Below are positions 1-35,306 of a DNA stretch of 64,000 nucleotides, in pieces. How positions within the stretch are numbered: position 1 is the stretch's first letter; the number at the start of each line of letters is the position of its first letter. A program made the position numbers and the translations under genes. The notes under the pieces are model-generated. The model made no database searches. It had not been told where the DNA came from and saw only the letters and a list, made by a program, of their open reading frames with translations. The DNA is taken from positions 33,003 through 97,002 of the forward strand of contig JAZDHK010000033.1 in assembly GCA_043806035.1 (NCBI GenBank), written 5' to 3'. The DNA comes from an archaeon (GTDB lineage Archaea > Nanobdellota > Nanobdellia > Woesearchaeales > UBA9642).

Positions 1-3000
1 GGATGCACGACATACAAAATACGCATTAGACAATTCAACACTTCTTGCCAACACGGACAACGTGCTCAATATCACGGCGAGAAAGACGAACGGCAGCGGC
101 ACCTGGGGTCCTGAAGGACAGGTATTTGCACTGCTCACTGAGGATGAGCAGCAGCCCTGGTTTGTCCTCTCTGACGTGTACATGAACACGTGCACGCCAG
201 CATGCATCGGCACGCTCAGAGGCAACTATTCAGAACCGAACTTCTTCAATCTTGAAATAACGGGAAACATATCCGCACCGTACTATACGGAGACCCCTCC
301 TGCGCAGCCATTCATCATAACACTCGAACTCAACGAGAGCGATGCGCTCATTTACGCGTCCATGCGGGACAGGGCAGGCAATCTCGCCTATCTCGAACGG
401 CAGGGACAGTATGATAATGAAAGCCCTGAACTGGAATTGCTTGAAGTCATCTCTAGACCTGACGGGTATGCTTTTGCAGACAATAATTTCACATGGCGTG
501 TCAAGAGACTGCAAGGCAATACACCCATACGTGTTAACGTCACCATTCGCGGAAGGATTGTCAGCACGGATTACCAGTATGTCAACTTGCGCAGCACAGA
601 CTCGACGCCCGTGCTGAACGTGAACATCACACCAGACATCAACGGATTCTTCTCCTATGACTTGCCACAAGAACTCATACCTATTACGGGAAGAGAGAAC
701 AATTACACGTACAACTTGTCCATATATGACCTTGCAGGGAACGTCCTGCTCATCCCGTTGCGTATCGTCTATGATCTCTCACCCCCTCTCATCACCGTGC
801 AATATCCTGCAGGCCATCCTGCTCGTCCGTATGATATTTTTTCGAATGAGCCACAACCTATGTTCTCGCTGCTCACTGATGAAGGGACGCTGTGCAATCT
901 GACCTACTATCCTCAGGACAGCCTCCTGCTTTGGACGGACAGCATAGAGGGATATGGTAGTACGCACCAGCAACGGCCATCCTACCAAATAGATCTCGTG
1001 CATAATGCGTTCAACGTCACCTGTGCAGACCTCGTCGGCAACACCGCCAATGCACCGTACCATTTCTTCTTCGACAATGAAGGTCCGCGCATACGCGCAA
1101 TAACCCTTACTACGCCAACGAGCAACTACGATGTCTTCCAGGACGAGAACCACGTGCAGTTCTACGTGTTCAACAGAACAGACACCATCATCAACTTCAG
1201 CATGATGAACAGCACGGGACAGGACGAGCCGTACACGTACTGCAAGTACGACCAGGATGACGTTCCCTACGAGCAGATGGCACTCGATGCAAATTACGTC
1301 TACGGATTCTCAGAATCGAGAAGGGCGACAAACCTGCTCAGCCTCACAAGCAACGAAACACACTACATTGCCTGCGCGGACTTCCTAAACAACACCCTGC
1401 AACAGCCCTACACCAACTACCGTGTCGATCTTTTCTCCAGTCCCACTGCCCCGCTCATCTGGAACGTCAAAGTGGACAACAAGACCGCAGGATACATCAG
1501 GCATTTGACACCAAAACTGGAAGTGTTCGCCAGCAGGTTCTTGACCTCCTGCACATACACGCAATACGTGGGCACGGAGCTTCCACTTCAGCGAGACCCG
1601 ACACACAATGGCGTCTATGACTTATTAGACACGGACAACAATCGCATTTTCGATGACATTCTCGACTTACAAAACGGGTTCATCTACCGTTTTGACATCA
1701 GCTGTCAGGGTGCGGGCAGCGAGACGGCAAGCATAACCGTCATGACCGACAACAGCACCTTCATTACCATCACTGATCCAGAGAACGGCGAGGTATTCAA
1801 CGACCCTCTGCGAACCATAACGGTGGTGACAGAGCCGGACAGCAACGTCACCGTGCTCGTTAATAACACCAACCCACGATCGGAATTCACAACCACGCCA
1901 ACGCTCATCCTGCAGAACGTCCTGCTACGCTATAACGGCAGCAACAACATCAGTGCACGCACACTCGATCATGCAGAGAACACGGCACAGGACAGCACCC
2001 TTGTTGTGTACAACATGTCCGGACCCTCAGTTAACATAAGTCTTGCTATCAATGATAACCAGTTCAGCAACCAAGAGCTGTGGATGGTCAACGACACATA
2101 TAACCTCACCATGAACTTCCAGAGCAGCAATCCTCTCTTCGATATTACCAGGACACGGCTGGTTTTCGAGAATGCAACACATGCACCTGTTGTGTTCACT
2201 AACACCACAATAGGGAATCGCATGCTGCTCACACCGGCCGCTCCATTCGTTCTCGTGAACGATTACACATTGGCAGTGGTTGCTTATGACCAGTATGGCG
2301 TTGCAGGAAGCACTGCTTTCTTCACCATCCTCATCAGGCCAGTCCCCAAGATAGTCGCCACTAGCCCGCAAGATGGCATTATCGTCTATGATACGGAGCA
2401 GAATTTCTCAGGCACATTCACTCCCTATGCGGAACAAGCGTACCTGCGCATAAACAACAGGACGATCATATCGTCGAATCCAGCATTCCAGTTGACAAGT
2501 ACAACATATACGTATGCAAGCGCGCTGTGCCAGGACATTATTCCTGGATTGAATACGTGGACCGTTTTTGCAGCACTCAACGAAACATGGGCAAACACAT
2601 CAGGAAGCTTGACCCTGCAGCAAAGCCTCCCTCCGAATGTTACGTTGTTCAGCACGCAAGAAAACGTCTTTGTTGACGACAACACCTTTAGGACCAATCA
2701 AACGCAGGTCAACATCAGCATCAACATCAGCGACGATGACAATGGCTGGTATGTCATCGAGAATGCCACTCATCGCATGGCCAGCGGCAACTTCTCAACC
2801 CTTCCAGAAACGCACACGTTCACGCTTACCGGCTTGACGAATGGAGCAAGCCGTCACCTCAACATCACCGCACAAGATAAGACGTGCAATGTGCGGGCAA
2901 TTGCAGTAACCGTCGTTAATGACAATCAGGCACCACTCATCAACATAACAGAGCCATTCTACTACAATAATCAACTCTTTGCAAGCACGGTGACTCCTGC

Positions 3001-9108: not shown

Positions 9109-12100
9109 ATGAAACATGCACTGTTCGTGCTAGTGCTGCTAGTCATCCCGCTCGCTCTCGCTGTCGATGTGCTACCAGGTAATCTCGTGACGAACAACGT
9201 CCAACCCACCATACACATCTTCTTCGACAAGAACACATCTGTTACCAACGCATCATTATGGAATGTTTCTGGACGCATGCCCGATACGTTCTTCTCCTAC
9301 GACCATGCCGTGAATGACACGACCCATTGGTATTTCAGCATAGAGCAGCCGTTGGCACACGGCAATTACAGCCTGCGATTCAACGCCACGGATGCACTCA
9401 ACAATTCTGACCCGAACAAGAGAGTTTATTTCTTCATCGACCTCATCAAGCCGAACATCACCGCACTCACCATGTATCCCTGGAGAAACGATTACTTGAA
9501 CGTCAGCAACCAAACTATAACTGTAACGACGATGGATAACCTTCCCGGCGTGCGCCTTATCGATGTCGTGCTGCGCAGGCAATCGACGACAACGAACATC
9601 ACTGCGCAGTTCAGGCAGATTACGTCCTGGGTATTTCAGGGCAATGCATCCATTCCTGATGGGAATTATACGCTGCTCGTGAACATCAGTGATGCTGGGG
9701 GCAATCGCGCAGACAGGAATCTTTCCTTCCTCATGAACGCAGAACCATTTCGCGTATTCTACGTTGCCCCTCCCTTCGGCTACACGGCAATAAACCCGTT
9801 TAATCTCACGCTGGGCACGAACAAGCAAGCCACCTGTTATTACAGCAAGAACAGGAACACGCCTTTCGGCAGCATGCTGCCCTTCACGGAGAGCGACGGC
9901 TTCAATCACCTCATTGCGAGCTTCCTGCTCGATGCAGCAATACAGAATATCACCGTCCAATGCATGATCCAAGAGGGAGGACTGAGTGACAGATTCAGCA
10001 TCGAATTAGGGTATGATGCGACACTGCCGAACATACAGGACATGAGCGTGCATCCCAACAACGGGCAACCCGTTATTAACGAGGACCTTGACAATGCCTA
10101 TCTTCGCGTACTAACTGATGATACGGCGCGATGCAAGTACAGTTTCAGCACGGATAACTATACGGATATGCTTCCGTTCGAAAATTTTTCCCAAGGAATA
10201 TTTGACGTATCAAACGCTCATTTCTTCAATGGGGAGATCGAGAATGGCAACAATTACACGGTCTTTGTACGCTGCGAGAATCGCGCAGGACTAATCAGCA
10301 GCGCACGCACCTTGCCGTTCAGTGTAGACTTGCAGGCAGCGGCAACGATAACCATCATTAGTCCATTGGCATACGTGCACAATCCCAATATTGTGTTCAA
10401 CATCACTACGACAGAAGCCACCACGTGCACGTATGACGGCAGGCCATTCGAGCATGGAGGAGGCACAAGAAATCTCTATACGGATCCCACGTGGTATGAG
10501 GACGGCAGCCACTCCGTCGTCATCGCATGCGAATTCCAGCAAGGCCTGCAAACCAAGAACGTGACGTTCATCGTCGATACCGTGCAGCCCAGCCAAGCCG
10601 TCATTGCCGTGGACAACATCAGCTGCAATCCCGAACGCATCACGGCAAGCTTCTCTGCCAACGACACGAACGGCATTCTCGGATACAATTACACCGTCAG
10701 TGGCCCAGGAGGTGTTGTCAAGGAATGGACATTCGGCAGCAGTGGAGAGTATAGCGGAGACTTGCAGGAGGGTGCCACGTACACGTGGAGGGCATACGCC
10801 ATCGACCGTGCAGGCAATGCAGGTCCTGAAGCCGCGCCCAAGAGTACGCGTGTGCTCAGTCCAGACAGCCTCTCGTGTGACGATACCTCTCCGCAGATTT
10901 CCTTCGATGCAGACACGGATCAAAATCAGATACGCATAATGGTTGATTGTTATGACAGCGATAGTGGCTGTGTCGACACGTTCTGGTATGATCTCAAGCT
11001 GTCCAGCAGCACCGCCTGCACATACACACGCTTGAGAAACATCAGCCAACCCGTGCTGCTCAATGATTCTGCAAAATTCTGTGCATTAGTGAAAGACAAG
11101 GCAGGAAACAATGCGACAAAGAGCGAATTCTTCTCCCTGCACATCAACGCAACGCACTGCAATAATTCGGAGAAGGATGGCGACGAATCCGACACGGACT
11201 GCGGCGGCAGCTGCTTGCCCTGCACGAAAGGGAAGCACTGCACGGACACGCAAGACTGCCTCGCCACGTTGTTTTGTGCCGCAAACAGCATATGCCAGCA
11301 ACCAACATGCAATGACACCATCAAGAATGGCCAAGAGTCAGATGTGGACTGCAGCGGTGATTGTCCTCCTTGTGCGCTCAACAAGACGTGCACAGTAGCG
11401 GTAGACTGCGAAAGCGGCTACTGTGCCAGCGGCAAGTGCAGCGTCGCCTCCTGCAACGACGGTGTGCAGAACGGCAATGAGTCAGACATTGATTGCGGCG
11501 GCCAATGCGTAAAGTGCGAGCTCAACAACCGTTGCGTGGTAGATGCTGACTGCATGTCCGGATTGTGCAAGCTGAGTTTCTGCACGAAGAAGATAGACGA
11601 GCAGGAGGTTCTGCCTCCCGAAGAGGCAAGCCACACGGCATCCATCGTGCTGCTCATCATCGGAGGACTGCTCATGCTCGGCGGTGCAGGATATCTGGTG
11701 TATGTCACCAAATTCGCATCACCGCCAGCCACCCCTCCTGCCATGCAGCAGAAACCACCGCAACGACCCGTGCTGCAGCAATCGAAAGGCCGTTTTCATT
11801 TCAAGAAGAGACCATCACTGCTGCCAACGCACTTCGCGCCAGCCCCGGAGAAGAAGCCGGTGCAGGAAGAGTATGTGGATGTTCGTGATTTGCAGACGAA
11901 GTCTGAAGAGAAAAGCGATGCCTTTAAAGAACTGGAAAAAGTGAGTTCTGATGTCAAGGATCCTTTCGCGGCATTGTCCAAAATAGGAGACAAGGCAATA
12001 GCGAATCTTGCGACAAAACGCCAGCTGGATACACAAGACATCGTCACGCTTGTCGAACATGCAGGGCAAGGACAGCAGCAGCTCACCGAGACCGTGCTGA

Positions 12101-12225
12101 AAAAACTCCTCTCAACCAATGCAATAACCAAGAAAGAGATCAGCGATGCGCTCTTCGAGCTTATGGACCAGCAGAAAATACGCTCGGACGATGCGCAGAA
12201 ATTCATGAGCGATCTCGACATCTAG
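9109..12225 (+). CDS. type I membrane surface protein: Sec signal peptide, Ig-like two-Cys modules, 3 Cys-rich repeats, TM helix, ~170-aa cytoplasmic tail
   Basis: GAGGTGAGG SD lies 3 nt upstream of the ATG. N-terminus MKHALFVLVLLVIPLALA|VD. DxAGN motifs (SDAGGN, IDRAGN, KDKAGN). TM helix ASIVLLIIGGLLMLGGAGYLVYV, followed by a Pro-rich then K/E-rich tail. Dense sequons occur only in the ectodomain. Confidence 0.88.
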   Translation: MKHALFVLVLLVIPLALAVDVLPGNLVTNNVQPTIHIFFDKNTSVTNASLWNVSGRMPDTFFSYDHAVNDTTHWYFSIEQPLAHGNYSLRFNATDALNNSDPNKRVYFFIDLIKPNITALTMYPWRNDYLNVSNQTITVTTMDNLPGVRLIDVVLRRQSTTTNITAQFRQITSWVFQGNASIPDGNYTLLVNISDAGGNRADRNLSFLMNAEPFRVFYVAPPFGYTAINPFNLTLGTNKQATCYYSKNRNTPFGSMLPFTESDGFNHLIASFLLDAAIQNITVQCMIQEGGLSDRFSIELGYDATLPNIQDMSVHPNNGQPVINEDLDNAYLRVLTDDTARCKYSFSTDNYTDMLPFENFSQGIFDVSNAHFFNGEIENGNNYTVFVRCENRAGLISSARTLPFSVDLQAAATITIISPLAYVHNPNIVFNITTTEATTCTYDGRPFEHGGGTRNLYTDPTWYEDGSHSVVIACEFQQGLQTKNVTFIVDTVQPSQAVIAVDNISCNPERITASFSANDTNGILGYNYTVSGPGGVVKEWTFGSSGEYSGDLQEGATYTWRAYAIDRAGNAGPEAAPKSTRVLSPDSLSCDDTSPQISFDADTDQNQIRIMVDCYDSDSGCVDTFWYDLKLSSSTACTYTRLRNISQPVLLNDSAKFCALVKDKAGNNATKSEFFSLHINATHCNNSEKDGDESDTDCGGSCLPCTKGKHCTDTQDCLATLFCAANSICQQPTCNDTIKNGQESDVDCSGDCPPCALNKTCTVAVDCESGYCASGKCSVASCNDGVQNGNESDIDCGGQCVKCELNNRCVVDADCMSGLCKLSFCTKKIDEQEVLPPEEASHTASIVLLIIGGLLMLGGAGYLVYVTKFASPPATPPAMQQKPPQRPVLQQSKGRFHFKKRPSLLPTHFAPAPEKKPVQEEYVDVRDLQTKSEEKSDAFKELEKVSSDVKDPFAALSKIGDKAIANLATKRQLDTQDIVTLVEHAGQGQQQLTETVLKKLLSTNAITKKEISDALFELMDQQKIRSDDAQKFMSDLDI
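11158..11583 (+). repeat. three tandem ~47-aa eight-Cys repeats (C-N-x4-[DN]-G-x-E-S-D-x-D-C-[GS]-G-x-C-x2-C ... D-C-x-[ST]-x2-C-x4-C)
   Basis: Read directly from the translation: CNNSEKDGDESDTDCGGSCLPC..., CNDTIKNGQESDVDCSGDCPPC..., CNDGVQNGNESDIDCGGQCVKC... Confidence 0.85.
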
Positions 12226-13581: not shown

Positions 13582-14091
13582 ATGAACGCGCAAGTGCAAA
13601 GCCAGATTTTCATTTACATCCTTGTTATAGTAGTTGTCGGTTTGCTGCTCCTGCTCGGCTACAAAGCCATCGGAAACTTGCGTAATGATGCGTGCAAGGT
13701 CAACGAGGTTAGCCTGAAAGCAGAGCTCGAGACTGCAGTCCAGGATAACAGCGCGTACAAGGCGTCTGACGTGAGAACATTCCAGGCGGGCTGTGCAGGC
13801 AGTGTGCTCTGCTTTGCTGACGCTGCTCTGGTAGAGGGCACGGGGGGCGTTGATTTTCCCTTGCAGCTCGGCAGGCCCGCAACGTATTTTTTTTACGTCA
13901 ATGACAGCATGAATGCGCACGTGCTAAGAAATGTGTTCATCCTGGACAATGAAGGCACGATGAACGAGCGGGCAATATTCATTCCTCGCGTCGAGGTGGA
14001 GCAGAACCTCACCTGCATCGAGGCAGTGCAGGGACTGTTCAAGGTGCGTTTTGAGGGCACGGGCAAGGGAACGAAGGTTTTCCCTGGGTGA
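13582..14091 (+). CDS. class III signal peptide (pilin-like) protein P1, 169 aa
   Basis: MNA|QVQSQIFIYILVIVVVGLLLLLGY N-terminus. An ATTAAAAG TATA-like box sits about 25 nt upstream. First gene of a tightly packed unit. Confidence 0.75.
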   Translation: MNAQVQSQIFIYILVIVVVGLLLLLGYKAIGNLRNDACKVNEVSLKAELETAVQDNSAYKASDVRTFQAGCAGSVLCFADAALVEGTGGVDFPLQLGRPATYFFYVNDSMNAHVLRNVFILDNEGTMNERAIFIPRVEVEQNLTCIEAVQGLFKVRFEGTGKGTKVFPG

Positions 14092-14094
14092 AGT

Positions 14095-15141
14095 ATGCAA
14101 AGAGGTGTGTTTGAGATCCAGTTCAACTGGATCTTCGTCATCATAGCAGGAGGCGTCATCCTCTTCTTTTTCCTGTCATTGATTAGCAAGCAGAAGGCGA
14201 CGAGCGACGAGTCCATCAACCAGGACGTGCTGCGCAGGCTCGACACCATCCTCATCAGCACCGAGCAAGGCTATCAGACGTACAAGGAATTGCATCTTGT
14301 CAAGACACAACTGACGTTCACATGCGAGGATACGTCTCCATCGCTGACGACGCAAGGCATCATCAGCAATTTGCAGATAGGCAGCTTCTCTGTTGACACA
14401 CCGACGCAGATACTCTTCACGCCACCCTCGCTCAATACGGACACGTTCCAATTATGGACGGACACATGGGACCAGCCGTTCCGCGTTTTGCCCTTTCTCT
14501 ACGTGACCGCCCCAGAAGTGTCCTTTTACATCGTCGAAACCACTCCGCCAGATCGTTCGCAGGAAATCTATGAATTACTGCCCGCAAATGTGAGCAAGAA
14601 ACTCATCACTGCTGCAGACATCAATTACTTGCCGAACAAGAACGACCAATACAGTGTGGTCATTTTTCTCGATGCAGCAGTCAATCTCGCAGATCCTCTG
14701 TATACTCCTTCGCAGCTGAAAGGTGACGTACGGGCAGTCAAGGTGGAATCTACTGGGGATGCTGGTGAGGTGACGTTTTACAAGAAATCGTTTGTGGGGA
14801 ATTTTTTCGAAAACGGGACGCTGCCTTTCATAGGCAACGAGATGCTCCTCGGGTCGATAGTGGCTGCGGACGCGCAGGCATACGCGTGCAATGTCAAGAA
14901 GGCGCTCGTGCGCTACAAGACCATTACTGAATTGCACCTTGCCCGGGTAATAAACCTGTCTGGCATGACCGATCCTACCTGCATAGGACCGTTGACCGCA
15001 GGACGAAGGACGCTCGAGTCCATGAACACAACGCTCAATTTCACAACGTCAGCGTTCCAGATGCTTGATTTATGCAGTACAGATTTGCAGACGAGCAATG
15101 AAGATCTCGTGAGAGGAAGACGATGCCCACTCATCTACTGA
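14095..15141 (+). CDS. pilin-like protein P2, 348 aa
   Basis: GGGTGA SD. MQRG|VFEIQFNWIFVIIAGGVILFFFLSLI. 3-nt gap after P1. Confidence 0.8.
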   Translation: MQRGVFEIQFNWIFVIIAGGVILFFFLSLISKQKATSDESINQDVLRRLDTILISTEQGYQTYKELHLVKTQLTFTCEDTSPSLTTQGIISNLQIGSFSVDTPTQILFTPPSLNTDTFQLWTDTWDQPFRVLPFLYVTAPEVSFYIVETTPPDRSQEIYELLPANVSKKLITAADINYLPNKNDQYSVVIFLDAAVNLADPLYTPSQLKGDVRAVKVESTGDAGEVTFYKKSFVGNFFENGTLPFIGNEMLLGSIVAADAQAYACNVKKALVRYKTITELHLARVINLSGMTDPTCIGPLTAGRRTLESMNTTLNFTTSAFQMLDLCSTDLQTSNEDLVRGRRCPLIY

Positions 15142-15605
15142 AGAAAGGACAATTGCAAATGCTCGAAAGCATAGGTGTCATCATCATCATAACCTTCCTC
15201 ATCTTCTTCAGCTTCAGCATCTACCAACGATTCCATGCCAGCGAGATAGCCAGGAAAAATCAGCAGCAGAACCAGCTTTCTGCCATCGATGTTGCAAATA
15301 GGATAGGGGAACTGCCAGAACTGCAGTGCAGCCACGTCGATGTTGTTACTGTAGGCTGTTTTGACCTGGTGAAAGTGCAAACCTTCGCAGCATTCGCAAC
15401 GTCTCCAGCATTCAGGCTCATGTACTATCCCCTCTTGAGGGAGAGCAGCATTACCGTCTACGAGACGTATCCTTCCCCACACAACTTCACCATCTACGAG
15501 CAGAATGCCACGAACACCAGCATACCATTCTTCATGCCTATAACTATCTACCACCCGCAAGAGCGAACGTATGGCTTCGGCTACATCGAGGTGCTCAAGG
15601 AATGA
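15123..15605 (+). CDS. pilin-like protein P3, 160 aa
   Basis: MPTHLLKKG|QLQMLESIGVIIIITFLIFFSF. 19-nt overlap with P2. Confidence 0.75.
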   Translation: MPTHLLKKGQLQMLESIGVIIIITFLIFFSFSIYQRFHASEIARKNQQQNQLSAIDVANRIGELPELQCSHVDVVTVGCFDLVKVQTFAAFATSPAFRLMYYPLLRESSITVYETYPSPHNFTIYEQNATNTSIPFFMPITIYHPQERTYGFGYIEVLKE

Positions 15606-16087
15606 AAGCACAGATGGAAATCATGGGGTTAGCTGTCATCGTCGTCCTCATTGCCCTGGGCATTTTCATCTTCATCGGATTGTCGGCACGGTTCGGCGAG
15701 GTCAACCAGATTGTGAAACCCGAAGCGTACAATGACGAGCGTCTAGCGACGACGTACGTTGATGCGCTCCTTCGAACATCCGTCCCTAGCTGTCATGCCT
15801 TGCATGTCGATGAACTGCTTCGCGACTGCGCCTTGAATAACAGGACGTGCGGTGCTTTGGGTAGTTGTGAGCTCGTGCAACTCGTCATCGAAAATGTCAC
15901 CAACGCCACGCTGGACGTGTGGGGGAAGAACTATTCCTTGAACGTCACGTATCCGTTGGGCACGAAAGGGATAAGCTTCAGCAAAGGACCTCCTTGCGTG
16001 CGAAGGTATGGTGTGGAGCCGTACACGGTGAGACTTCATCCGTTTCCGGGAGATGTGCTTGTAGAATTGTCCCTCTGCAAAAAATGA
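15602..16087 (+). CDS. pilin-like protein P4, 161 aa
   Basis: ATGA overlap with the P3 stop. MKA|QMEIMGLAVIVVLIALGIFIFIGL. Confidence 0.78.
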   Translation: MKAQMEIMGLAVIVVLIALGIFIFIGLSARFGEVNQIVKPEAYNDERLATTYVDALLRTSVPSCHALHVDELLRDCALNNRTCGALGSCELVQLVIENVTNATLDVWGKNYSLNVTYPLGTKGISFSKGPPCVRRYGVEPYTVRLHPFPGDVLVELSLCKK

Positions 16088-16103
16088 TGTGCTAAGAACA
16101 AAC

Positions 16104-16111
16104 AATATAAA
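16104..16111 (+). promoter_or_regulatory. TATA-like box (AATATAAA) about 27 nt upstream of the 31-aa ORF
   Basis: Spacing matches the other leaderless starts in this window. Confidence 0.4.
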
Positions 16112-16133
16112 CGTGTACGTCGGTTGAATCATT

Positions 16134-16229
16134 ATGACTATCGGTTTTTGGGCAAAGTTGCTCTTCATCTGCATCGTCTTGGGAGCACTCATCGTTATGA
16201 CAATAAAACTCGTGGGCATATTTTCGTGA
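16134..16229 (+). CDS. 31-aa hydrophobic micro-ORF s1 (below the ORF-track cutoff)
   Basis: ATG ACT ATC GGT ... TCG TGA translates to MTIGFWAKLLFICIVLGALIVMTIKLVGIFS. A TATA box sits at about -27. It ends 4 nt before P5. Confidence 0.35.
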   Translation: MTIGFWAKLLFICIVLGALIVMTIKLVGIFS

Positions 16230-16233
16230 ATGC

Positions 16234-17160
16234 ATGGAAACTAAACCTTTGGCAACGGTTATTATGGCAGTCATCATAGCCGTGCTACTCTTAGGGATGC
16301 TTGCATACTCTATCGCTACTATCAAGAAGTTTGAGGACAGGGACAAGTGCAGGCTCACCTCGTGGGCGCAGGCGAACAGCCAATACCAGCCAGGCATTGC
16401 AGGCATCATTCCAGGACCAAAGTTCGATTTAGGATTACGCCAAGACTGCCCAACCTATTACGTGACGTTCACCAAGGACAAGGTCACGGAGAGGAAAAGC
16501 AACAGCGACGACACGGAAGTGCTCAGCGTCTATGACAGCACACGGGGGAAACTGGTACAAAAGTACAAGCAGCTCACACCAGACATGGTCAACAGCGTCG
16601 TCGCAGAACAAATGCGTTACTGCTACTACCAGTTCTGGGAAGGCAAAGTGCCTGTCTTTTACAACAAGTATACGGACATCAATGTTTTATCAACGATTGC
16701 ATTCGGTGTTGTTGGTGTTGCACTGACCCATGCGAACAACGTCCGCTGCTTTCCCTGTGCGGAATTGCACTTCAGCGACAGTGTTGATTATGACTCAAAC
16801 AAAGGCAGTGGTCTGTCCGTGCAAAACCTTCCAGAAACACAACTCCCCCCTTCTGAAAATACGGCAAGCATAGGCTATTATTTGGTCAACAGGAAAGGCA
16901 AGAACATGAACAGCACGTATTTTGATTATTTGAACAGCTACAACGGCTACTGCCAACTTACGACGGGCAAGCAGGGAAGCTGCCTGGCTGAAGAGCTCAA
17001 TGACATGGACATAGATCCCTATCTCGTGCTGGAAAAAGACAAGTACTACAAAGTCTTGCTTATCAGGAGGGGAGAGGAACGGGACGAGTACACCATAACA
17101 TCGTATGTTGTCCCTGCTGATCGGGAAGCAAAGATATGCACGGAGGGCATGGTGTCATGA
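16234..17160 (+). CDS. N-terminally anchored secreted protein P5, 308 aa (paralog of P6)
   Basis: METKPLATVIMAVIIAVLLLGMLAYSIA, with no clear K/R-G motif. Shares EQMRYCYYQFWEGKVPVF ... VRCFPCAELHF with P6. Confidence 0.78.
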   Translation: METKPLATVIMAVIIAVLLLGMLAYSIATIKKFEDRDKCRLTSWAQANSQYQPGIAGIIPGPKFDLGLRQDCPTYYVTFTKDKVTERKSNSDDTEVLSVYDSTRGKLVQKYKQLTPDMVNSVVAEQMRYCYYQFWEGKVPVFYNKYTDINVLSTIAFGVVGVALTHANNVRCFPCAELHFSDSVDYDSNKGSGLSVQNLPETQLPPSENTASIGYYLVNRKGKNMNSTYFDYLNSYNGYCQLTTGKQGSCLAEELNDMDIDPYLVLEKDKYYKVLLIRRGEERDEYTITSYVVPADREAKICTEGMVS

Positions 17161-18041
17161 AGGCACAAATAAGCAGTCTCTTGCTCGTCACCATTGTCAC
17201 GATACTGACCTTGCTCGTCGTGCTGCTCGTCATGTCCGGCATATTCTCGAGCACGAATGATGCCTTTGCGTACAAGGACTGCCAGGCGAGCGTGGAAAAA
17301 TTCATCGCCCGCACAAAATTGACGAAAGATTACACGACGGCGAGCATCACGTGCAGGACGAGAACGGTGAATGTACGCGCCACTGATCAGGAACAGGTGA
17401 AACGGCAACTTGCGGAGGAAATGCGCAGCTGCTGGTCAACATTCAAACAAGGTAATGTACGGTTCTTCGTTGAAGAGGGCACGTACTGCCACCCCTGTGC
17501 TATTGTCAATTTTAATAAGAGAATGAAACCGATTACTGATTTCAATGCGTACTTGGCGCAAAGGAAGATGACGAGCAGCAACCTCACGTATGCGGCTTAT
17601 TTTATAGGTTACAGCACGCCTGGAGGACAGGAATTAGCAGTCTTCACAGATAATGCAAGTTTTGGAAATGCTCTTCTCCTTGATCCGCAGAAGCATTATG
17701 TCGTGCTGTTCCACCACATGATGGGCATGGAAACCATACGACAATTCAAAGAAAGAATAGGCGGTGAGACGAACGCAGTATTTTTAGGCATTGGAGCGGG
17801 GGGTGCCGCTGCTGGAGTTGTGGGTATTATTCTTGTTACTGCAGGAGTTGTTTCTGGACCCATAGGCTGGATCATCTTGGGCGCAGGCATGGTCATAGGG
17901 GGGGTGATTGCAGACATTTGGGGAGACCCTCCAGAATGGGTGAGCAGCATCATGCTTATAGAATACAAGCCGGGAGAACTCGAGAGGCTCGGCTGCCAAT
18001 TTGATGAAGTGCAGCAGGACATGTTCGGCAACCTAAACTAA
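17157..18041 (+). CDS. pilin-like protein P6, 294 aa, with a C-terminal glycine-zipper TM pair
   Basis: ATGA overlap with the P5 stop. MKA|QISSLLLVTIVTILTLLVVLLV. EEMRSCWSTFKQGNVRFF ... YCHPCAIVNF. C-terminus GIGAGGAAAGVVGIILVTAGVVSGPIGWIILGAGMVIGGVIA. Confidence 0.78.
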   Translation: MKAQISSLLLVTIVTILTLLVVLLVMSGIFSSTNDAFAYKDCQASVEKFIARTKLTKDYTTASITCRTRTVNVRATDQEQVKRQLAEEMRSCWSTFKQGNVRFFVEEGTYCHPCAIVNFNKRMKPITDFNAYLAQRKMTSSNLTYAAYFIGYSTPGGQELAVFTDNASFGNALLLDPQKHYVVLFHHMMGMETIRQFKERIGGETNAVFLGIGAGGAAAGVVGIILVTAGVVSGPIGWIILGAGMVIGGVIADIWGDPPEWVSSIMLIEYKPGELERLGCQFDEVQQDMFGNLN

Positions 18042-18044
18042 ACA

Positions 18045-18053
18045 TTTATAAAA
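18045..18053 (+). promoter_or_regulatory. TATA box (TTTATAAAA) about 27 nt upstream of the 45-aa ORF
   Basis: Located immediately after the P6 stop. The spacing implies a leaderless transcript starting at ATG 18076. Confidence 0.45.
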
Positions 18054-18075
18054 TTAGTTCACGCCTTGCACGGGC

Positions 18076-18213
18076 ATGCATGGCCAGAAAAGCACTTTGA
18101 AGGAGATGATCGTTCTTGCAGCGGTGATTATCATTTTCATCATCATTTTGTCGTTTTTATTCAAGGACAAGGTTTCCAACCTGGTCGATAGCATCATTTC
18201 CGTATTCCACTAA
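18076..18213 (+). CDS. 45-aa Flp-like mini-pilin candidate s2 (below the ORF-track cutoff)
   Basis: MHG|QKSTLKEMIVLAAVIIIFIIILSFLFKDKVSNLVDSIISVFH. It has its own TATA box. The TAA stop lies 2 nt before the P7 ATG. Confidence 0.5.
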   Translation: MHGQKSTLKEMIVLAAVIIIFIIILSFLFKDKVSNLVDSIISVFH

Positions 18214-18215
18214 CT

Positions 18216-19013
18216 ATGAAAGGACAACTCAACAAGCAACTGTTGGGCTTCATCATGCTAGCCATTGCAATCATCATGGCATACTTGTTGCTCACGCACG
18301 GCAGAGACTATGCATTCAAGATGCAATACTGGCTCTTCGGACCACCATCCGACGATGATGATCGTGCACACTACTATTTTGATCGCATGGCAGAATTCCT
18401 CGAGAGCTCCGCAGTGACGGACGATTTCTCGAAAAAATTGCCAACAGAGGTACCTTGCCTGCTTTCACGGTATGCGTACGATGAGGACAAGCCGCTCTCG
18501 AGCAAGTACTTCTTCAGCGTCGACTATGAAGGGCCTGCAGACAACCAGCAGGGCAACAAGGCATACGTCTTGCACATGCACGTGCAAACGCCATCAGGCT
18601 TCATTGATAATGCCTCAAAAAGACTGGGCGTGCAGACGTTCAGGTATAGGTGCTCTGCAATCGAGCCAAAAGTGAACAGACCTCCCGTCATGCTCGCGCA
18701 GGACGCATTCCTTTGTGGAGTGAACCCCCCTGCACGGTACATACTTCTCCCGGACCAGCACGTTGCAGGTATGCCGTTCCTGCAGGACTACGCCCAAATA
18801 AACAAGACCACGAACACGTACTACTTTTCCCGCTACCCTTCATTGTACATCTTTGCAGACACGGCAAACCCTGTTGAAGAGGACAAATACCGATCCTACT
18901 TTTACGTCTTCGACCCCGCAGACAGCATGTACAAGGCAAGCTCGACTCGAGACAGCATACTGCGCAGCCTGCAAGAGATTCCCTCCTGCACGTTCAAGAA
19001 GCGGAAGACGTGA
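18216..19013 (+). CDS. pilin-like protein P7, 265 aa
   Basis: MKG|QLNKQLLGFIMLAIAIIMAYLLL. Confidence 0.78.
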   Translation: MKGQLNKQLLGFIMLAIAIIMAYLLLTHGRDYAFKMQYWLFGPPSDDDDRAHYYFDRMAEFLESSAVTDDFSKKLPTEVPCLLSRYAYDEDKPLSSKYFFSVDYEGPADNQQGNKAYVLHMHVQTPSGFIDNASKRLGVQTFRYRCSAIEPKVNRPPVMLAQDAFLCGVNPPARYILLPDQHVAGMPFLQDYAQINKTTNTYYFSRYPSLYIFADTANPVEEDKYRSYFYVFDPADSMYKASSTRDSILRSLQEIPSCTFKKRKT

Positions 19014-19036
19014 CTGCGGCCGCAGCATCCGAAACC

Positions 19037-19044
19037 TTTAAATA
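19037..19044 (+). promoter_or_regulatory. TATA box (TTTAAATA) upstream of P8
   Basis: About 45 nt upstream of ATG 19088, which has a GAGGTGA SD. Confidence 0.4.
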
Positions 19045-19087
19045 GTGAAAGAGCGGCTGTATTTCTAAAAGTTTCGAGGTGACGGTT

Positions 19088-19342
19088 ATGAAGAAAGGTG
19101 TGGAACTTTCTATGAATGTCATCATCATTGCAGCAATAGCACTCGTTGTTTTGGTGATATTGGTGGTGCTTGTCCTAAACAGCGCAGGGCCTGTGGCGGA
19201 CACGAACAAGTGTGGCGCGGGGCAAGGCATGTGCATCGGAGAAGGCGATGAGTGTGGTGACGGCTACATCGTGCAGCCGTTGAGCAACTGCCCGACAGCA
19301 ACGCCGAAATGCTGCGTACCCTTTGGCGGCGAGCAGCAATAA
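19088..19342 (+). CDS. mini-pilin P8 with a six-Cys C-terminal knob, 84 aa
   Basis: GAGGTGA SD. MKKG|VELSMNVIIIAAIALVVLVILVVLVL, then C-x6-C-x6-C-x11-C-x6-CC. Confidence 0.82.
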   Translation: MKKGVELSMNVIIIAAIALVVLVILVVLVLNSAGPVADTNKCGAGQGMCIGEGDECGDGYIVQPLSNCPTATPKCCVPFGGEQQ

Positions 19343-19352
19343 AGGTGCAAGC

Positions 19353-19589
19353 ATGAGAAGAGGTGTGGAACTTTCTCTTAATTTTATCATTATTGCGGTC
19401 ATCGTGCTCGTCATCCTGCTCATAGCCATCGTTCTCGTCATCAATGGCGGCACGAGCTTCAATAGGGACACGAAGACCTGCACGTCAAGAGGAGGACAGT
19501 GCATTCCGGGAGGGGACAGTTGCCCTTCTGGCTCGATACCTGTTCCTGGCGTAGAGGGATGTGACGGCAGCTGCTGCCTCGGGGCATAG
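19353..19589 (+). CDS. mini-pilin P9 with a six-Cys knob, 78 aa (tandem paralog of P8)
   Basis: AAGGTG SD. MRRG|VELSLNFIIIAVIVLVILLIAIVLVI, then C-x6-C-x6-C-x12-C-x3-CC. Shares the 15-mer ggtgtggaactttct with P8. Confidence 0.82.
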   Translation: MRRGVELSLNFIIIAVIVLVILLIAIVLVINGGTSFNRDTKTCTSRGGQCIPGGDSCPSGSIPVPGVEGCDGSCCLGA

Positions 19590-19592
19590 CTC

Positions 19593-19721
19593 ATGAGGAG
19601 TACAGAGCTGGCGATGAACAGCATCGTCACCATGGCCGTTGCTGCCTGTCTCTGTTGTTCATCTACTCAGGTGATGGTTCAATTAACGAATGCTGCATAT
19701 CAGGTGAGAGTTGTTGCATAG
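19593..19721 (+). CDS. 42-aa degenerate third copy of the VELS mini-pilin N-terminus (s3), possibly a remnant
   Basis: MRSTELAMNSIVTMAVAACLCCSS... aligns with the [KR]-G-VELS-[ML]-N-x-I-I-I start of P8/P9. The hydrophobic stretch is short. Confidence 0.3.
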   Translation: MRSTELAMNSIVTMAVAACLCCSSTQVMVQLTNAAYQVRVVA

Positions 19722-19725
19722 ACAT

Positions 19726-21420
19726 ATGAAGAAAGGCATGGCTGCCCTGGAGTTTGTCGGCTACTTGCTGCTGATGCTCGTGGTCATTCTAGTAGCGATG
19801 TATCTCATCAATGGAGGAATAAGCATGTTTGGCATGGCTACCGGCTGTGAAGGGCAGAACGGCGTGTGCAAGGAATCCTGTGGTGAGAATGAACGAACGG
19901 TCATTTTCTTCAAGGGCTGTCCCCCGTCTGATGACAGGGCAGATAAGGAGAAGAAGCACTGCTGCGCCCCGCAAAAAGAAGATCAGGAAGGAGGCAGCGA
20001 GAGTGATGCGAAGTGCAAGAACCAAAATAATGGGTACGCCTGCGGCAATGGCACGCTCAGATACGGCAATAGAAACATTCCCTTCGTTTCCATGGTGTGC
20101 TTAGACCAGAAATGCGTGCCTCGCTGCGACTTTTGTGCAAGAGTCCTGGGCAGCGATACTGTTTGCAATCCGCTGCCAGGCGTGAATCAAGAAGTCACGT
20201 TCACTGATGCTTTCTCGTGCAGAGCCATGGAAAGTCCTCTGGATTGTGATGCACTCAACCTGCATGGTGACTGCATCAGAGGCTTCTGCCCGGGTGACAC
20301 GTACTGTGCAAAACGAGACGGCAATGGAGCGAGAGATGGTGAATTGTACATCCGCTATTCCGACCAGCCAGAATACTGTGCGGGAGACTGCGCCTTGCCT
20401 GGCACAATCGTGATCGTCGGTGACCCATTACGCCTCACCGTCAGTTACTCTGGACCGGACAGGAAGCTCTGCGCGGTAGATGTACTCAGAGAGGATGGGC
20501 AAGCCAACAAATTCGTCAGGCAGTTCACACCAGCATGCAGGAACGTTTCCTTAGATAATGGTCCATGCTCATTCAGGTGGGTGTTTGAATGCGGAGGAGA
20601 TGCACCTGCATTCGTGCTCGAGAATGACCCATTGCAGTTTCTAGTGAACAGTTCAGAATATGAATTGTTGAAGAATGTGCCCTTGCGTATCGATGTCATC
20701 GCCTATAATTGTGACGTCAGCGATAAGCAGGGCAACGTCCAGACGAGTCCTTGCCAGGACAAGGGAAGAAACGAATTAGCCCACGCCCGCATTTCTCTCG
20801 ACTTAATGAAGCCGTCATCTGCAGAGCTGCGCAAAAGAAATCCCATAATCACCATAGCATCATCCAATCCATCGACGAAATCCTGCATTGTTACCTGCAA
20901 GAACTCATTGGGGGAGCAGTGTGGGCCGCTGAACTACCTGGGTGTGGGTGCAGGAGAGCAGTGTGGGGAGAACTTGAACTGGGAGGGAAATTTGCCCACA
21001 CTAGCCTACAACAAGTGGAACGAACAGCCAATAGACAGAACAGCAAACCCTGTATTGTGCTTCAGAGGCAGGCTCACGAGCAACCCGCTCTTCGTTAATT
21101 ACACGACAGACCCTAACGGGTGTGAGCGGTTCTTCTACCAGAAAGTAGCGGAGGAGCAAGTGTGCCTGTGGAACAGCTGTGCACAAATTTCTGATGCTGC
21201 ACAATGTGAAGACACGCTCAGCCAAGGCTGCAGCTTCAGCTGTATTTGGGATAATGTGAAAAAGACGTGCCGGCTGTGCAGCACGCCCGAAACCCAATGC
21301 AAGTACATCAGAGACAGGGCTGCCTGTGATGCTGCAGCAGAAAAGTGCGGCATGCAATGCCACTGGCGGCGACGATTCCTGTTCCTGCCTGACACGTGCG
21401 AGCCGGGGCCGAGACCATGA
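19726..21420 (+). CDS. pilin-like, extremely Cys-rich secreted protein P10, 564 aa
   Basis: MKKG|MAALEFVGYLLLMLVVILVAMYLI, then knob C-x6-C-x3-C-x12-C-x13-CC. About 44 Cys by my count (an even number). Confidence 0.82.
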   Translation: MKKGMAALEFVGYLLLMLVVILVAMYLINGGISMFGMATGCEGQNGVCKESCGENERTVIFFKGCPPSDDRADKEKKHCCAPQKEDQEGGSESDAKCKNQNNGYACGNGTLRYGNRNIPFVSMVCLDQKCVPRCDFCARVLGSDTVCNPLPGVNQEVTFTDAFSCRAMESPLDCDALNLHGDCIRGFCPGDTYCAKRDGNGARDGELYIRYSDQPEYCAGDCALPGTIVIVGDPLRLTVSYSGPDRKLCAVDVLREDGQANKFVRQFTPACRNVSLDNGPCSFRWVFECGGDAPAFVLENDPLQFLVNSSEYELLKNVPLRIDVIAYNCDVSDKQGNVQTSPCQDKGRNELAHARISLDLMKPSSAELRKRNPIITIASSNPSTKSCIVTCKNSLGEQCGPLNYLGVGAGEQCGENLNWEGNLPTLAYNKWNEQPIDRTANPVLCFRGRLTSNPLFVNYTTDPNGCERFFYQKVAEEQVCLWNSCAQISDAAQCEDTLSQGCSFSCIWDNVKKTCRLCSTPETQCKYIRDRAACDAAAEKCGMQCHWRRRFLFLPDTCEPGPRP

Positions 21421-22085
21421 GGGGAGAGGCAACACATGATCAAGTGATAGGGTTCATCATACTTGTCTTCATCCTGGTGGCTGTTGTTTTTGGCATTTAT
21501 TGGAAATTCTTTCACAAGAGCGAGCAGCAAATAGCTGACTTAGAAAGTTGCGGAACGTTCAGCATCGTCGTCGCTGGCGACAGCCTGACGCGGCCAGGAG
21601 AATGCATTGTTGGAAAATGCCCGACGGACAGGCAATACAAGCAAGTGCCTGGAATGTGCGATCCAGGAATGGTGTGCTGTGTGGATCAATCATTGGAAAC
21701 GGATGTTCCTGTGCTCATGTACCGGCTCAAGGGAGAGGATACTCGGAAGTACAAGCCAATGCAAGGCAGCATAAATCTCGAAAAGGGCAAGAAATACGTC
21801 TTCAAGATGCCACAGCTCACCGAGCAGCAGGATGCAGTATCGTGTGCAATCACCATGTACGAAGTCGATGATTTTGAGCAATTGCCCACGCAAGAGGGAG
21901 GCAATGACAACAGCGCCAGAGACGAGCGCATTGACTGGGCAAAAAACAACTGCATTGAGAATGCGACAACATGGATGGATATAATCTTTCCCGAAGAGGC
22001 CAATTATTTGCTGTTCATCAAGAGTATTGACTCCTCAGGGGAGGAACTCGTCGTTGAGCCTGTTGAGCTGAGCGTGGTCTCGTGA
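21417..22085 (+). CDS. pilin-like protein P11, 222 aa
   Basis: ATGA overlap with the P10 stop. MRG|EATHDQVIGFIILVFILVAVVFGIY. Knob C-x17-C-x4-C-x12-C-x5-CC. Confidence 0.75.
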   Translation: MRGEATHDQVIGFIILVFILVAVVFGIYWKFFHKSEQQIADLESCGTFSIVVAGDSLTRPGECIVGKCPTDRQYKQVPGMCDPGMVCCVDQSLETDVPVLMYRLKGEDTRKYKPMQGSINLEKGKKYVFKMPQLTEQQDAVSCAITMYEVDDFEQLPTQEGGNDNSARDERIDWAKNNCIENATTWMDIIFPEEANYLLFIKSIDSSGEELVVEPVELSVVS

Positions 22086-23512
22086 ACGGCAGCCTTGATT
22101 TTCATTTCCTTCTTGAAGCGATCATGATTTCCATCATCGTGCTCTTCATCTTTGGTTGCGTCAATGGTGCATACCATTCGTTGACGAACGCTGACGATAG
22201 GCAGGTGAGCCTGAACAACTTCAACGCCTTAGCAACGGGCATGCAGAGTCTCGTGAACGTGCAGGACAGAGTCATGGTACAAGGCATGACCTTCTCTCTC
22301 CCTGCCAGAGTATACGTTGTCGGCTTTGACAGCGAATGGAATGAGAATGTCAAGCAGGCAGGATTGACAGATGACAGCTCCTATGAAGGTGTGCACAAGC
22401 CACAACAATGCTTGGTGAACGAGCATTCGCCAGAGGATGCTTGCTTGTGCTTGTACGAGAATGAGCAATTCGCCTACATGCACGGTAGCGAGAACAGGTT
22501 TGGAAAATTAAGTCCAGAAGAACGCATCAAGGCGTACGAAAAGCCCATCATGGCCTGCTACGTGTTCTCCTCAAAACCCGATGTGGCGGGGAGGTTTAAG
22601 CCAATAGTCTTCCTTAGCACGTGGGCAAGCAGCGACAGTCCCGTTGCAGAGAATGCAAAAAAGCCGTTCTTTGCAACAGTCCGTCCAGACCAGCCTCCGT
22701 ATGCTGGCGTCTTGGGAAGCAAGGATAACGAAGCAGGAAAATATGCATTCCTCATCTTCAAAGGCAATGACAAAACCCACACGCTCTACTACGAAAAGTA
22801 TGAGACCGACGAAAAAATTTACATTTACCTTACCACGAAAGTAGCGACACAGGACCTTTCCTTCAGAGAGTACGAACTCAAAAAACAGGCAGGATATTGC
22901 AGCGACAACAGCCATGCCAATTGTGCGGGAAAGACCATAGGAACGAGCATAGGCACGGGAAGGTATGGCAATACGCTCGACGAATGGTATGCTGTTAGTC
23001 AAGGAAGGTATGCGCAAGCAGCACCCTCTGCGGTGTGCAACGGCCGTTTCACGTGCGAACCAATATCAGAGGAGAAAGGATGCAGGATCGTCTGCCAGCC
23101 GTACTGCATAGAGCAGTGCAAAGACCAGAACTGCAAGGCAGCAGTCATCACGGAAAAGTGCGAATGCAACGGCATCAAATTTTCTGGCTACTGCGCATGC
23201 ACGCAGGACGTCACCACTGGCACGTGCCCCGCCATTGACGGCATTCCCACCCTGCTCTATCACGACCAAGTCATCCAGGGATACGGCGATGCATTGCAGC
23301 AATGCATTGCCGAACACATTGCAGACGACGCGTATGTCGAAGATCAGCTGAAGAGCATAGTGCATTATGCATCAGATGACTATGCCGACTGTAGTTTTGA
23401 GCGTCTCGATGGTGACGATGCGTTCAGTGCATGCGAGCACGATGTGTGCATGGCATCGGCGAACCCTTCCTGTGTGATTGCTGCAGAAGACAGATGCACG
23501 CCTCGACGATAA
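22082..23512 (+). CDS. pilin-like protein P12 with a Cys-rich C-terminal region, 476 aa
   Basis: GTGA overlap with the P11 stop. (M)NG|SLDFHFLLEAIMISIIVLFIFG. C-terminal CNGRFTCEPISEEKGCRIVCQPYCIEQCKDQNC... Confidence 0.75.
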   Translation: MNGSLDFHFLLEAIMISIIVLFIFGCVNGAYHSLTNADDRQVSLNNFNALATGMQSLVNVQDRVMVQGMTFSLPARVYVVGFDSEWNENVKQAGLTDDSSYEGVHKPQQCLVNEHSPEDACLCLYENEQFAYMHGSENRFGKLSPEERIKAYEKPIMACYVFSSKPDVAGRFKPIVFLSTWASSDSPVAENAKKPFFATVRPDQPPYAGVLGSKDNEAGKYAFLIFKGNDKTHTLYYEKYETDEKIYIYLTTKVATQDLSFREYELKKQAGYCSDNSHANCAGKTIGTSIGTGRYGNTLDEWYAVSQGRYAQAAPSAVCNGRFTCEPISEEKGCRIVCQPYCIEQCKDQNCKAAVITEKCECNGIKFSGYCACTQDVTTGTCPAIDGIPTLLYHDQVIQGYGDALQQCIAEHIADDAYVEDQLKSIVHYASDDYADCSFERLDGDDAFSACEHDVCMASANPSCVIAAEDRCTPRR

Positions 23513-30269: not shown

Positions 30270-30375
30270 GGTAATATCGCTCGAGAATCACACAGCCCTA
30301 TACTACGCGTGAACTCGGGCTTTTTTGGAAAGAATGCCGAACCATTTATAAAGCTTCTGGTCGCTCTTTTATGGC

Positions 30376-35253: not shown

Positions 35254-35306
35254 ATCAAAGCTATCTATAGATAGCTTTAAATACTTTTCTATTTTGTATA
35301 GCGGAT

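Follow-up and report, generated by a model that had tools for sequence, protein, structure and literature searches.

Pilin-like proteins with a beta-defensin-like six-cysteine head in Woesearchaeota-type archaea

A pair of small tandem genes and their family

We examined two small tandem genes, P8 and P9, in a 64,000-nt stretch of DNA from a Woesearchaeota-type DPANN archaeon (the window; unless a related locus is named, all coordinates are positions within it, on the forward strand of contig JAZDHK010000033.1). P8 (19088..19342, plus strand) encodes 84 amino acids (aa), beginning with MKKG/VELSMNVIIIAAIALVVLVILVVLVLN, which comprises a predicted class-III-type signal and pilin helix (the slash marks the predicted junction). 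This part is followed by a short linker, a cysteine-rich region that we call the knob, and a GGEQQ tail. The P8 knob, CGAGQGMCIGEGDECGDGYIVQPLSNCPTATPKCC, runs from C42 to C76 (19211..19315), carries a net charge of -3 and scores 31.2 bits against a hidden Markov model (HMM) of the knob. P9 (19353..19589, plus strand, 78 aa) is a divergent second copy with the start MRRG/VELSLNFIII... and the helix ELSLNFIIIAVIVLVILLIAIVLVI; its knob (19479-19577) has a net charge of -2 and scores 20.4 bits. Both proteins have the layout M-[KR][KR]-G, a hydrophobic stretch of ~27 residues, a linker of ~10 residues and six cysteines. The cysteines are spaced C-x6-C-x6-C-x11-C-x6-CC in P8 (6-6-11-6-0) and C-x6-C-x6-C-x12-C-x3-CC in P9 (6-6-12-3-0). 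The two proteins are 49% identical across 65 residues and share the exact 15-mer GGTGTGGAACTTTCT (at 19097 in P8 and 19362 in P9), of which 0.01 matches are expected by chance. A preliminary description of this DNA had presented P8 and P9 as tandem paralogues that share a 15-mer and have a six-cysteine pattern ending in CC after the helix, and each of these points was borne out.

The same description assigned P8 a TATA box and a strong Shine-Dalgarno sequence, and P9 a Shine-Dalgarno sequence of its own, and all three are present on the plus strand. The TATA-box-like octamer TTTAAATA lies at 19037..19044, 51 nt upstream of the P8 start codon. Shine-Dalgarno-like GAGGTGA (19076..19082) stands 5 nt ahead of the P8 ATG, and AAGGTG (19342..19347), which overlaps the final base of the P8 stop codon, stands 5 nt ahead of the P9 ATG. 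The window has 25 octamers of the form TTTAWAWA against 3.85 expected (6.5-fold excess), most of them a short way upstream of a gene; the motif is thus a real signal in this genome. The plus strand of the gene cluster holds only two of them, at 18045 and 19037. Upstream of the P8 orthologue we found TTTAAATA or TTTATAAA in the related loci L001, L003, L004, L005 and L006, and GAGGTG at the same position in 5/5 related loci read. A TATA-like box together with GAGGTG is present in the gap upstream of the putative mini-pilin gene, as we call members of this family, in 6/6 loci read, the window included. In the window at large, TTTAWAWA typically lies ~31 nt ahead of start codons (30345 to 30376; 35276 to 35307), a distance which suggests that transcripts are mostly leaderless. 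P8, by contrast, would have a leader of ~20 nt with a Shine-Dalgarno sequence.

Downstream of P9 lies s3 (19593..19721, plus strand), an open reading frame (ORF) of 42 aa which lacks a knob and whose start, MRSTELAMNSIV..., is pilin-like but degenerate. Joined to a second reading frame, it gains ...SGDGSINECCISGESCCIDI, a CC-x5-CC tail. The nearest relative, L085, has no counterpart of s3, and there copy 2 abuts the next gene. It is most likely a decayed third copy, in line with the degenerate copy proposed earlier, or else a spurious ORF.

Searching with P8 returned 114 homologous protein clusters of 77-117 aa. Where their sources are named, these are Woesearchaeota, Nanobdellota or other DPANN archaea. 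A scan of species-representative genomes located the family at 78 loci. Their labels are nearly always Woesearchaeota, Nanoarchaeota, Nanobdellota, Pacearchaeota or, generically, 'uncultured Methanosarcinales', and the homologues of P8 and P9 span genomes of very different G+C content. Complete genomes with the family include OY970338.1, CP010425.1 and OZ246410.1. Many of the 'uncultured Methanosarcinales archaeon' labels come from third-party assemblies of metagenome-assembled genomes, and one family member (L080, DASPMU010000049.1) sits on a contig binned as 'Alphaproteobacteria bacterium'. Both the Alphaproteobacteria and the Methanosarcinales labels probably reflect mis-binning or placeholder taxonomy, not true occurrence beyond DPANN.

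Conservation within the family is concentrated in the helix. The N-terminus follows ..KKG-VELSMNVIIIAAIAL.VLVIL, and 17 positions in residues 4-25 show conservation of 90% or more, up to invariance. The knob, by contrast, keeps only the six cysteines and one glycine, and its mean column identity, taken alone, is 26%. A conserved helix with a variable head is the pattern expected of a pilin core helix, which a signal peptide would not be expected to show. Only one homologue could be detected for a neighbouring 348-aa protein, against 114 for P8; thus the P8 N-terminus is unusually conserved for this operon. Tandem copies are found in 13 of 51 loci, with a canonical first copy followed by a second whose helix is divergent. 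P9 used as a query found no homologue beyond itself, and it reads as a fast-evolving second copy.

The preliminary description had made its proposal depend on conservation of the cysteine pattern in orthologues. In an alignment to the family HMM, the six cysteines are in register in 209 of 223 distinct knobs (~94%), and most of the exceptions are alignment artefacts; such conservation goes well past what chance could give. The commonest spacings in the family are 6-3-9..11-5-0 and 7-8-14-5-0. The P9 orthologue in L085 (10278-10520) likewise keeps the pattern, as C-x6-C-x7-C-x11-C-x5-CC.

The knob and its likeness to beta-defensins

The likeness to beta-defensins had been put forward as a resemblance of cysteine spacing only. 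We examined it with a profile of 58 knob sequences, from which the helix was removed, searched against all PDB chain sequences at E<=10. Twenty-three of the 24 matches have the beta-defensin fold, among them human beta-defensin 1 (hBD1; E=3e-4). The others include the tick carboxypeptidase inhibitor, hBD3, hBD106, mouse BD8, gallinacin-11, bovine BNBD-12, oyster big defensin, crotamine and helianthamide. Knobs and beta-defensins align along the pattern ..C...GG.C...C....G.C..G..CCK. In the reciprocal test, in which the 58 knobs were compared with Pfam, the most-matched families were Defensin_beta (PF00711; 11/58) and Defensin_beta_2 (PF13841; 9/58), with a best E-value of ~2e-4 and all matches under the curated cut-offs.

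As a control, non-cysteine columns of the profile were permuted inside each inter-cysteine segment and hBD1 was scored against 100 such shuffles. The real profile gave 22.8 bits and the shuffled profiles a mean of 8.0 (standard deviation 5.5, maximum 22.7), so that 0/100 reached the real score. Cysteine spacing thus contributes ~8 bits and the other positions ~15. An hhalign comparison with nine animal beta- and big-defensin sequences gave a probability of 68.8% (P=4.5e-5) over 33 columns.

Two further features of the knob point in the same direction. A glycine two residues ahead of the second cysteine (G-x-C2) is present in 120 of 125 six-cysteine members, and we take it to correspond to the G-x-C motif of defensins. 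Seven natural four-cysteine variants, from at least three lineages, keep C1, C2, C4 and C5; all seven lack C3 and have tyrosine in place of C6. Because C3 and C6 are lost together in 7/7 variants, we infer a C3-C6 disulfide in the knob. This is the pairing of beta- and big defensins, not of alpha-defensins (PMC7203481). By analogy, we assume that C1-C5 and C2-C4 form the remaining bonds. The PDB profile, the Pfam comparison, the shuffle control, hhalign and the coupled loss of C3 and C6 agree, and they support a similarity to beta-defensins which is sub-threshold, specific and reciprocal and which exceeds the spacing resemblance originally claimed.

Structure prediction, which the preliminary description had proposed as a check, is consistent with this likeness. 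The AlphaFold2 model of full-length P8 (mean pLDDT, predicted local distance difference test score, 78.8) has a helix at residues 4-32 and strands at 48-50, 60-63 and 74-78. The knob modelled alone gave the same three strands, at 10-12, 22-25 and 36-40, with a pLDDT of ~79. The knob is therefore predicted to be a three-stranded antiparallel beta-sheet. The best small Foldseek matches, crotamine, Hact-SCRiP1 and human HNP4, all have the trans-defensin fold, with template modelling (TM) scores of 0.55-0.62 and E-values that are not significant. Neither of the two outcomes that the preliminary description had named as refuting, a cysteine pattern lost in orthologues or an unrelated predicted fold, was observed. 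A knottin reading was rejected, as knottin families and structures are absent among the top profile and Pfam matches. The head had been described as disulfide-knotted; it is indeed a small six-cysteine head, and its topology looks defensin-like, not knottin-like.

The knob also departs from the classical defensins. Counted from C1 to C6, its net charge is -2 in the median and zero or below in 91% of members; it never reaches +3, and the values of P8 and P9 (-3 and -2) are not those of cationic host-defence peptides. We therefore rejected a reading of the knobs as cationic antimicrobial peptides, and an antimicrobial role is unlikely because the knobs are anionic. Nor does the layout correspond to that of a big defensin: the N-terminal part is modelled as a single long helix and not as a globular domain, and Pfam Defensin_big matches with E-values of 0.043-0.17, far under its cut-off.

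We also searched 1.84 billion representative proteins with the knob profile at E<=1e-3. The 105 matches include many further mini-pilins, some with two or three knobs (e.g. P0134 and P0135), and large proteins in which an archaeal class-III-like start is combined with 5-9 knobs in tandem (P0116, and P0124, which has a dockerin as well). Several knobs are also present in lipoprotein-like or signal-peptide proteins among the matches. In P0128 and P0130, according to Pfam scans, four knobs lie between a signal peptide and a C-terminal VirB2/T4SS_pilin (TrbC) domain, and P0129, judged by eye, has the same layout. P0128 passes the gathering cut-off of Pfam Defensin_beta_2. The T4SS_pilin model has been used to detect VirB2-like pilins in Patescibacteria (PMC12102498), where the family is widely detected. 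The knob is found both on a pilin-type helix and with a T4SS_pilin domain, and thus decorates two unrelated kinds of pilus subunit in prokaryotes.

Animal proteins were matched by the same search, namely lizard tandem beta-defensins and multi-domain proteins of shrimp and sea spider. At the profile level, the knob is indistinguishable from animal beta-defensin-like domains. The top match is P0115 (XP_027236059.1, Penaeus vannamei), which has ten tandem cationic knob-like domains; its annotation as 'granulins-like' rests on a weak partial Pfam match. Two N/Q/T-rich metagenome proteins with 6-9 knobs, P0119 and P0123, look eukaryotic or amoeba-like, and P0119 also has a C-terminal GH25 lysozyme domain. 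According to reviews, trans-defensins occur only in animals (PMC7203481), and bacteria are reported to have only cis-defensins (PMC11561630). Our literature searches on defensin with archaea, pilin, DPANN and Patescibacteria found no earlier description of the family or of a defensin-like pilin.

The operon around P8 and P9

P8 and P9 lie in a co-oriented operon of ~15 genes (13582..23512, plus strand), almost all of which have class-III-signal-like N-termini. The typical N-terminus has a basic residue, then Gly, Ala or Ser, then a long hydrophobic stretch ([KR][GAS] plus hydrophobic). This motif is present in at least 12 of the ~15 operon genes (9/11 automatically picked cluster genes, plus P8, P9 and the gene at 13582-14091) and in 1/42 genes elsewhere in the window. 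The L001 operon shows the same abundance of class-III-like N-termini.

The gene that follows s3, P10 (19726..21420, plus strand), encodes 564 aa with 44 cysteines, and has a class-III-like start, MKKG/MAALEF..., ahead of a large cysteine-rich body. Near its N-terminus, at 19846-19965, is a knob-like motif, C-x6-C-x3-C-x12-C-x13-CC, which the P10 orthologue in L085 keeps as C-x6-C-x3-C-x12-C-x11-CC with GGVC. P10 equivalents of 620-817 aa come after the mini-pilin in L003, L004 and L006. P10 is a candidate minor pilin or adhesin. P11 (21396..22085, plus strand, 229 aa) begins in pilin-like fashion with MRG/EATHDQVIGFIIL..., and part of a knob (CIVGKCPTDRQYKQVPGMCDPGMVCC) lies at ~21594-21686, with a marginal score of 10.2 bits. 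Scanning the whole window with the knob HMM found P8, P9 and this marginal P11 match only; a regular-expression scan added the N-terminus of P10. The last gene, at 22082-23512 on the plus strand, encodes a 476-aa protein with 25 cysteines, and neither this protein nor P10 matched any known family.

The TATA-like box at 18045 precedes a 45-aa ORF upstream of P8 (18076-18213, plus strand) that is little more than a pilin-like helix (MHGQKSTLKEMIVLAAVIIIFIIILSF...). L004, L005, L006 and L085 have comparable helix-only ORFs, of 43-54 aa, at this place in the operon or close to it. The operon is preceded by two genes for giant proteins, both on the plus strand and each with 36 cysteines, one of 3011 aa (62-9097) and an Ig-like one of 1038 aa (9109-12225). 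The two have Ig-like (Big_13), Glucodextran_B and weak CBM matches, and giant proteins are found at the same position in every related locus examined. Synteny is kept in L001, L003, L004, L005, L006 and L085, and the gene order persists in distant relatives of very different base composition. The kept order is the giant or giants, genes of ~170, 360, 165 and 170 aa, the mini-pilin or mini-pilins, a cysteine-rich protein of 540-820 aa and a protein of ~230 aa.

In two related loci the operon ends in a further giant with cell-wall hydrolase domains. That of L005 (9402-13451, ~1350 aa) has Peptidase_M23 and SLT domains, and that of L006 (19665-20288, running past the end of the locus) has an NlpC/P60 domain. 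At the operon end in the window (23512) no cell-wall hydrolase domain was detected. The hydrolase domains in L005 and L006 are hints that the apparatus targets bacteria. They agree with the suggestion that some Woesearchaeota attack bacteria (PMC9723730).

Outside the operon, the minus strand at 33233-34996 encodes a membrane-anchored 587-aa protein with DsbA/Thioredoxin_4 and GILT-like parts. Its motifs are CPYS and CPYG (CxxS and CxxG), not CxxC. This protein could oxidise or isomerise the cysteine-rich surface proteins of the cluster.

A pilin-like reading and its alternatives

We propose that this Woesearchaeota-type DPANN archaeon has a type-IV-filament-like surface fibre in which P8 serves as the main subunit and P9 as a secondary one, and put the probability of this reading at about 0.6. 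P8 would be transcribed from its own promoter, and the precursor would enter the membrane by its hydrophobic helix with the basic tip inside. A class III signal peptidase would then cut after Gly4 (KKG/VELS). Outside the cell, the 35-residue knob would fold and oxidise into a three-stranded sheet with three disulfides, for which the DsbA/GILT-like membrane protein encoded in the window, with its CPYS and CPYG motifs, may provide the context. The genes for a type-IV-filament ATPase and a platform protein would lie elsewhere in the genome, and these two proteins would polymerise the subunits into a thin fibre that has the helices as its core and displays the small, acidic, fast-evolving knobs outward. 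The neighbouring genes with the same type of N-terminus would supply minor pilins or adhesins. The giants at the operon ends, which carry peptidoglycan hydrolase domains in related loci, suggest a cell-contact apparatus aimed at other microbes.

The argument for pilin identity is drawn from the N-terminal motif together with the operon context. Both P8 and P9 have a short basic tip, Gly at position -1 and at least 20 hydrophobic residues; they cluster with other class-III-signal genes, and their helix is more conserved than their head. A profile of the helix had a single PDB match, the subunit 'Flagellin' of a 20-chain filament (8fk7), with E=0.05. The preliminary description had named P8 and P9 as the best candidates for major subunits, and the case for P8 in that role is circumstantial. 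It draws on the most conserved N-terminus in the operon, the TATA box and Shine-Dalgarno sequence in all six loci read and the tandem arrangement in a quarter of loci (13/51), and it is held back by the lack of nearby machinery and of matches to pilin models.

Several observations weigh against this proposal. Machinery was sought by Pfam scans of ~30 window ORFs and by a Walker-A/A24 motif search over the window and 84 related loci (~20 kb each). The scanned window ORFs contain no secretion-ATPase Walker A motif (GxTGSGKT), TadC/FlaJ or A24 peptidase, and the same machinery was not found within 10 kb on either side in the 84 loci. Pfam and NCBIfam models of pilins, archaellin N-termini and class-III signals gave no match at E<=1 on P8, P9 or eight neighbours. 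Weak matches of these proteins to DUF948, HemY_N and FliL were rejected as transmembrane-helix matches, and are a source of stray database names. For the head, P8's own knob has no Pfam defensin match, and the Foldseek E-values, for the full-length and knob-only models alike, reach 1.4 at best. According to one preprint, moreover, DPANN genomes lack type IV pili components (10.1101/2020.05.14.094862). Other sources report two type IV pilus systems in Nanoarchaeota (PMC6142677) and, in a 2026 survey, archaeal type-IV-filament systems in some DPANN (10.64898/2026.04.22.720090). Archaeal major pilin genes are often encoded apart from the ATPase and the rest of the machinery (PMC4858521), and the missing linkage is therefore not decisive.

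The lack of filament machinery near the genes and of matches to curated pilin models would suit membrane-anchored surface display proteins that do not polymerise, with the helix kept in the membrane as a signal-anchor and the knob exposed close above the cell surface as a receptor, adhesin or inhibitor. Beta-defensin-fold binders and inhibitors do exist among the profile matches (the tick carboxypeptidase inhibitor and helianthamide). However, the helix is near-invariant across at least 78 species, which is unusual for a plain anchor, the basic-Gly/Ala/Ser junction is repeated in about a dozen neighbour genes, and a linker of ~10 residues would bury the knob beneath any S-layer; we regard display proteins as unlikely, if worth keeping in view. 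A short pseudopilus, working like the piston of type II secretion to export or present the giant neighbour proteins, would fit the presence, in all loci examined, of giant secreted proteins on the flanks of the operon (among them the peptidoglycan hydrolases of L005 and L006) and the many candidate minor-pilin genes within it. Yet no ATPase or platform protein was found nearby for such a piston either, and at the sequence level nothing distinguishes it from a pilus, and we consider it distinctly improbable.

The resemblance of the knob, in sequence and predicted fold, to beta- and big defensins raises the idea that P8 and P9 give rise to secreted defensin-like peptides that act as antimicrobials or toxins, with the N-terminus as a cleavable leader or a membrane-active domain. 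In big defensins, too, a hydrophobic part at the N-terminus is joined to a beta-defensin-like domain at the C-terminus (PMC7203481), and related loci encode peptidoglycan hydrolases. The acidity of the knobs (median -2, none at +3 or above) argues against such peptides, as does the ~27-residue hydrophobic stretch, whose conservation exceeds that of the 'active' part, whereas a leader peptide would show the reverse. The N-domain of big defensins is moreover a globular beta-alpha-alpha-beta structure (PMC7203481) and not a single helix, and the scores of Defensin_big are far too low; we hold this idea to be very improbable. Finally, a longer ORF, of 152 aa, is present on the opposite strand (19175-19633, minus), and P8 and P9 might be artefacts of gene calling that overlie it or no gene at all. 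We give this next to no credence and rejected the antisense ORF, as it is the plus-strand products that are conserved, with their helix and cysteines, in more than 100 homologues of very different G+C content, and promoter and Shine-Dalgarno signals stand upstream.

The proposed filament subunit shares several features with the archaeal type IV pilins (PilA-type, Epd, Aap and Ups), namely a basic N-terminus, a predicted Gly/Ala/Ser cleavage site, a hydrophobic helix of ~25 residues as the most conserved part, and clustered genes of the same type. The Methanococcus major pilin EpdE is also tiny. P8 differs from these pilins in having no Ig-like or beta-sandwich head, its exposed part being the 35-residue three-disulfide knob only. 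The P8 family is not covered by the 2016 census of archaeal type IV pili, and a keyword search of the 2026 preprint on archaeal type-IV filaments turned up passages that describe no such pilin (10.64898/2026.04.22.720090).

With animal beta-defensins, the knob has in common the six cysteines ending in CC, the G-x-C at C2, the predicted three-stranded sheet and the putative C3-C6 bond. The family spacings (C-x6/7-C-x3-8-C-x9-15-C-x5-CC) were scored as of the beta-defensin type C-x4-8-C-x3-5-C-x9-13-C-x4-7-CC, P8 itself having 6-6-11-6-0. In contrast to animal beta-defensins, the knob is archaeal, acidic instead of cationic, and fused to a pilin-type helix instead of a Sec signal and propeptide, and for P8 itself all statistics are under the family thresholds. 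The tick carboxypeptidase inhibitor (Pfam Inhibitor_I68), crotamine, helianthamide and the sea-anemone SCRiPs, which are profile or best Foldseek matches of the knob, illustrate that the beta-defensin fold can serve as a binding or inhibitor module. Unlike P8, these non-antimicrobial proteins are animal, secreted and without a membrane or pilin helix. The VirB2/TrbC-type pilins P0128 and P0130 carry the same knob four times, on a scaffold and by a secretion route unlike those of P8. We conclude that P8 is best filed with the archaeal type-IV-pilin-like proteins, as a variant whose three-disulfide, beta-defensin-like head is unprecedented.

It is a more speculative and, in our judgement, doubtful step to regard the knob as a true homologue of the animal beta- and big-defensin domain, which would make the trans-defensin fold an old prokaryotic pilus-surface module. 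If so, DPANN would carry the module on type-IV-type pilins and, probably, Patescibacteria would carry it on VirB2-type pilins, both groups being ultra-small episymbionts. The fold would later have reached animals or been inherited by them, and the helix and knob of P8 would be a distant analogue of the big-defensin layout.

If the pilin-like reading is correct, P8 would have the smallest disulfide-stabilised pilin head found in these searches, and its knob would be the first beta-defensin-like (trans-defensin) domain outside animals, as far as the literature searched shows. The knob occurs in tandem arrays on large archaeal pilin-like proteins and fused to VirB2-type pilins, probably of bacteria, and the origin of beta- and big defensins would therefore become directly testable. 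The family would serve as an HMM-searchable marker for these filaments, and the knob as a tiny, stable and variable scaffold for high-copy display on a fibre. For the archaea themselves, P8 would represent a widespread, unannotated surface-filament subunit of Woesearchaeota-type DPANN, whose contact with their hosts is little understood.

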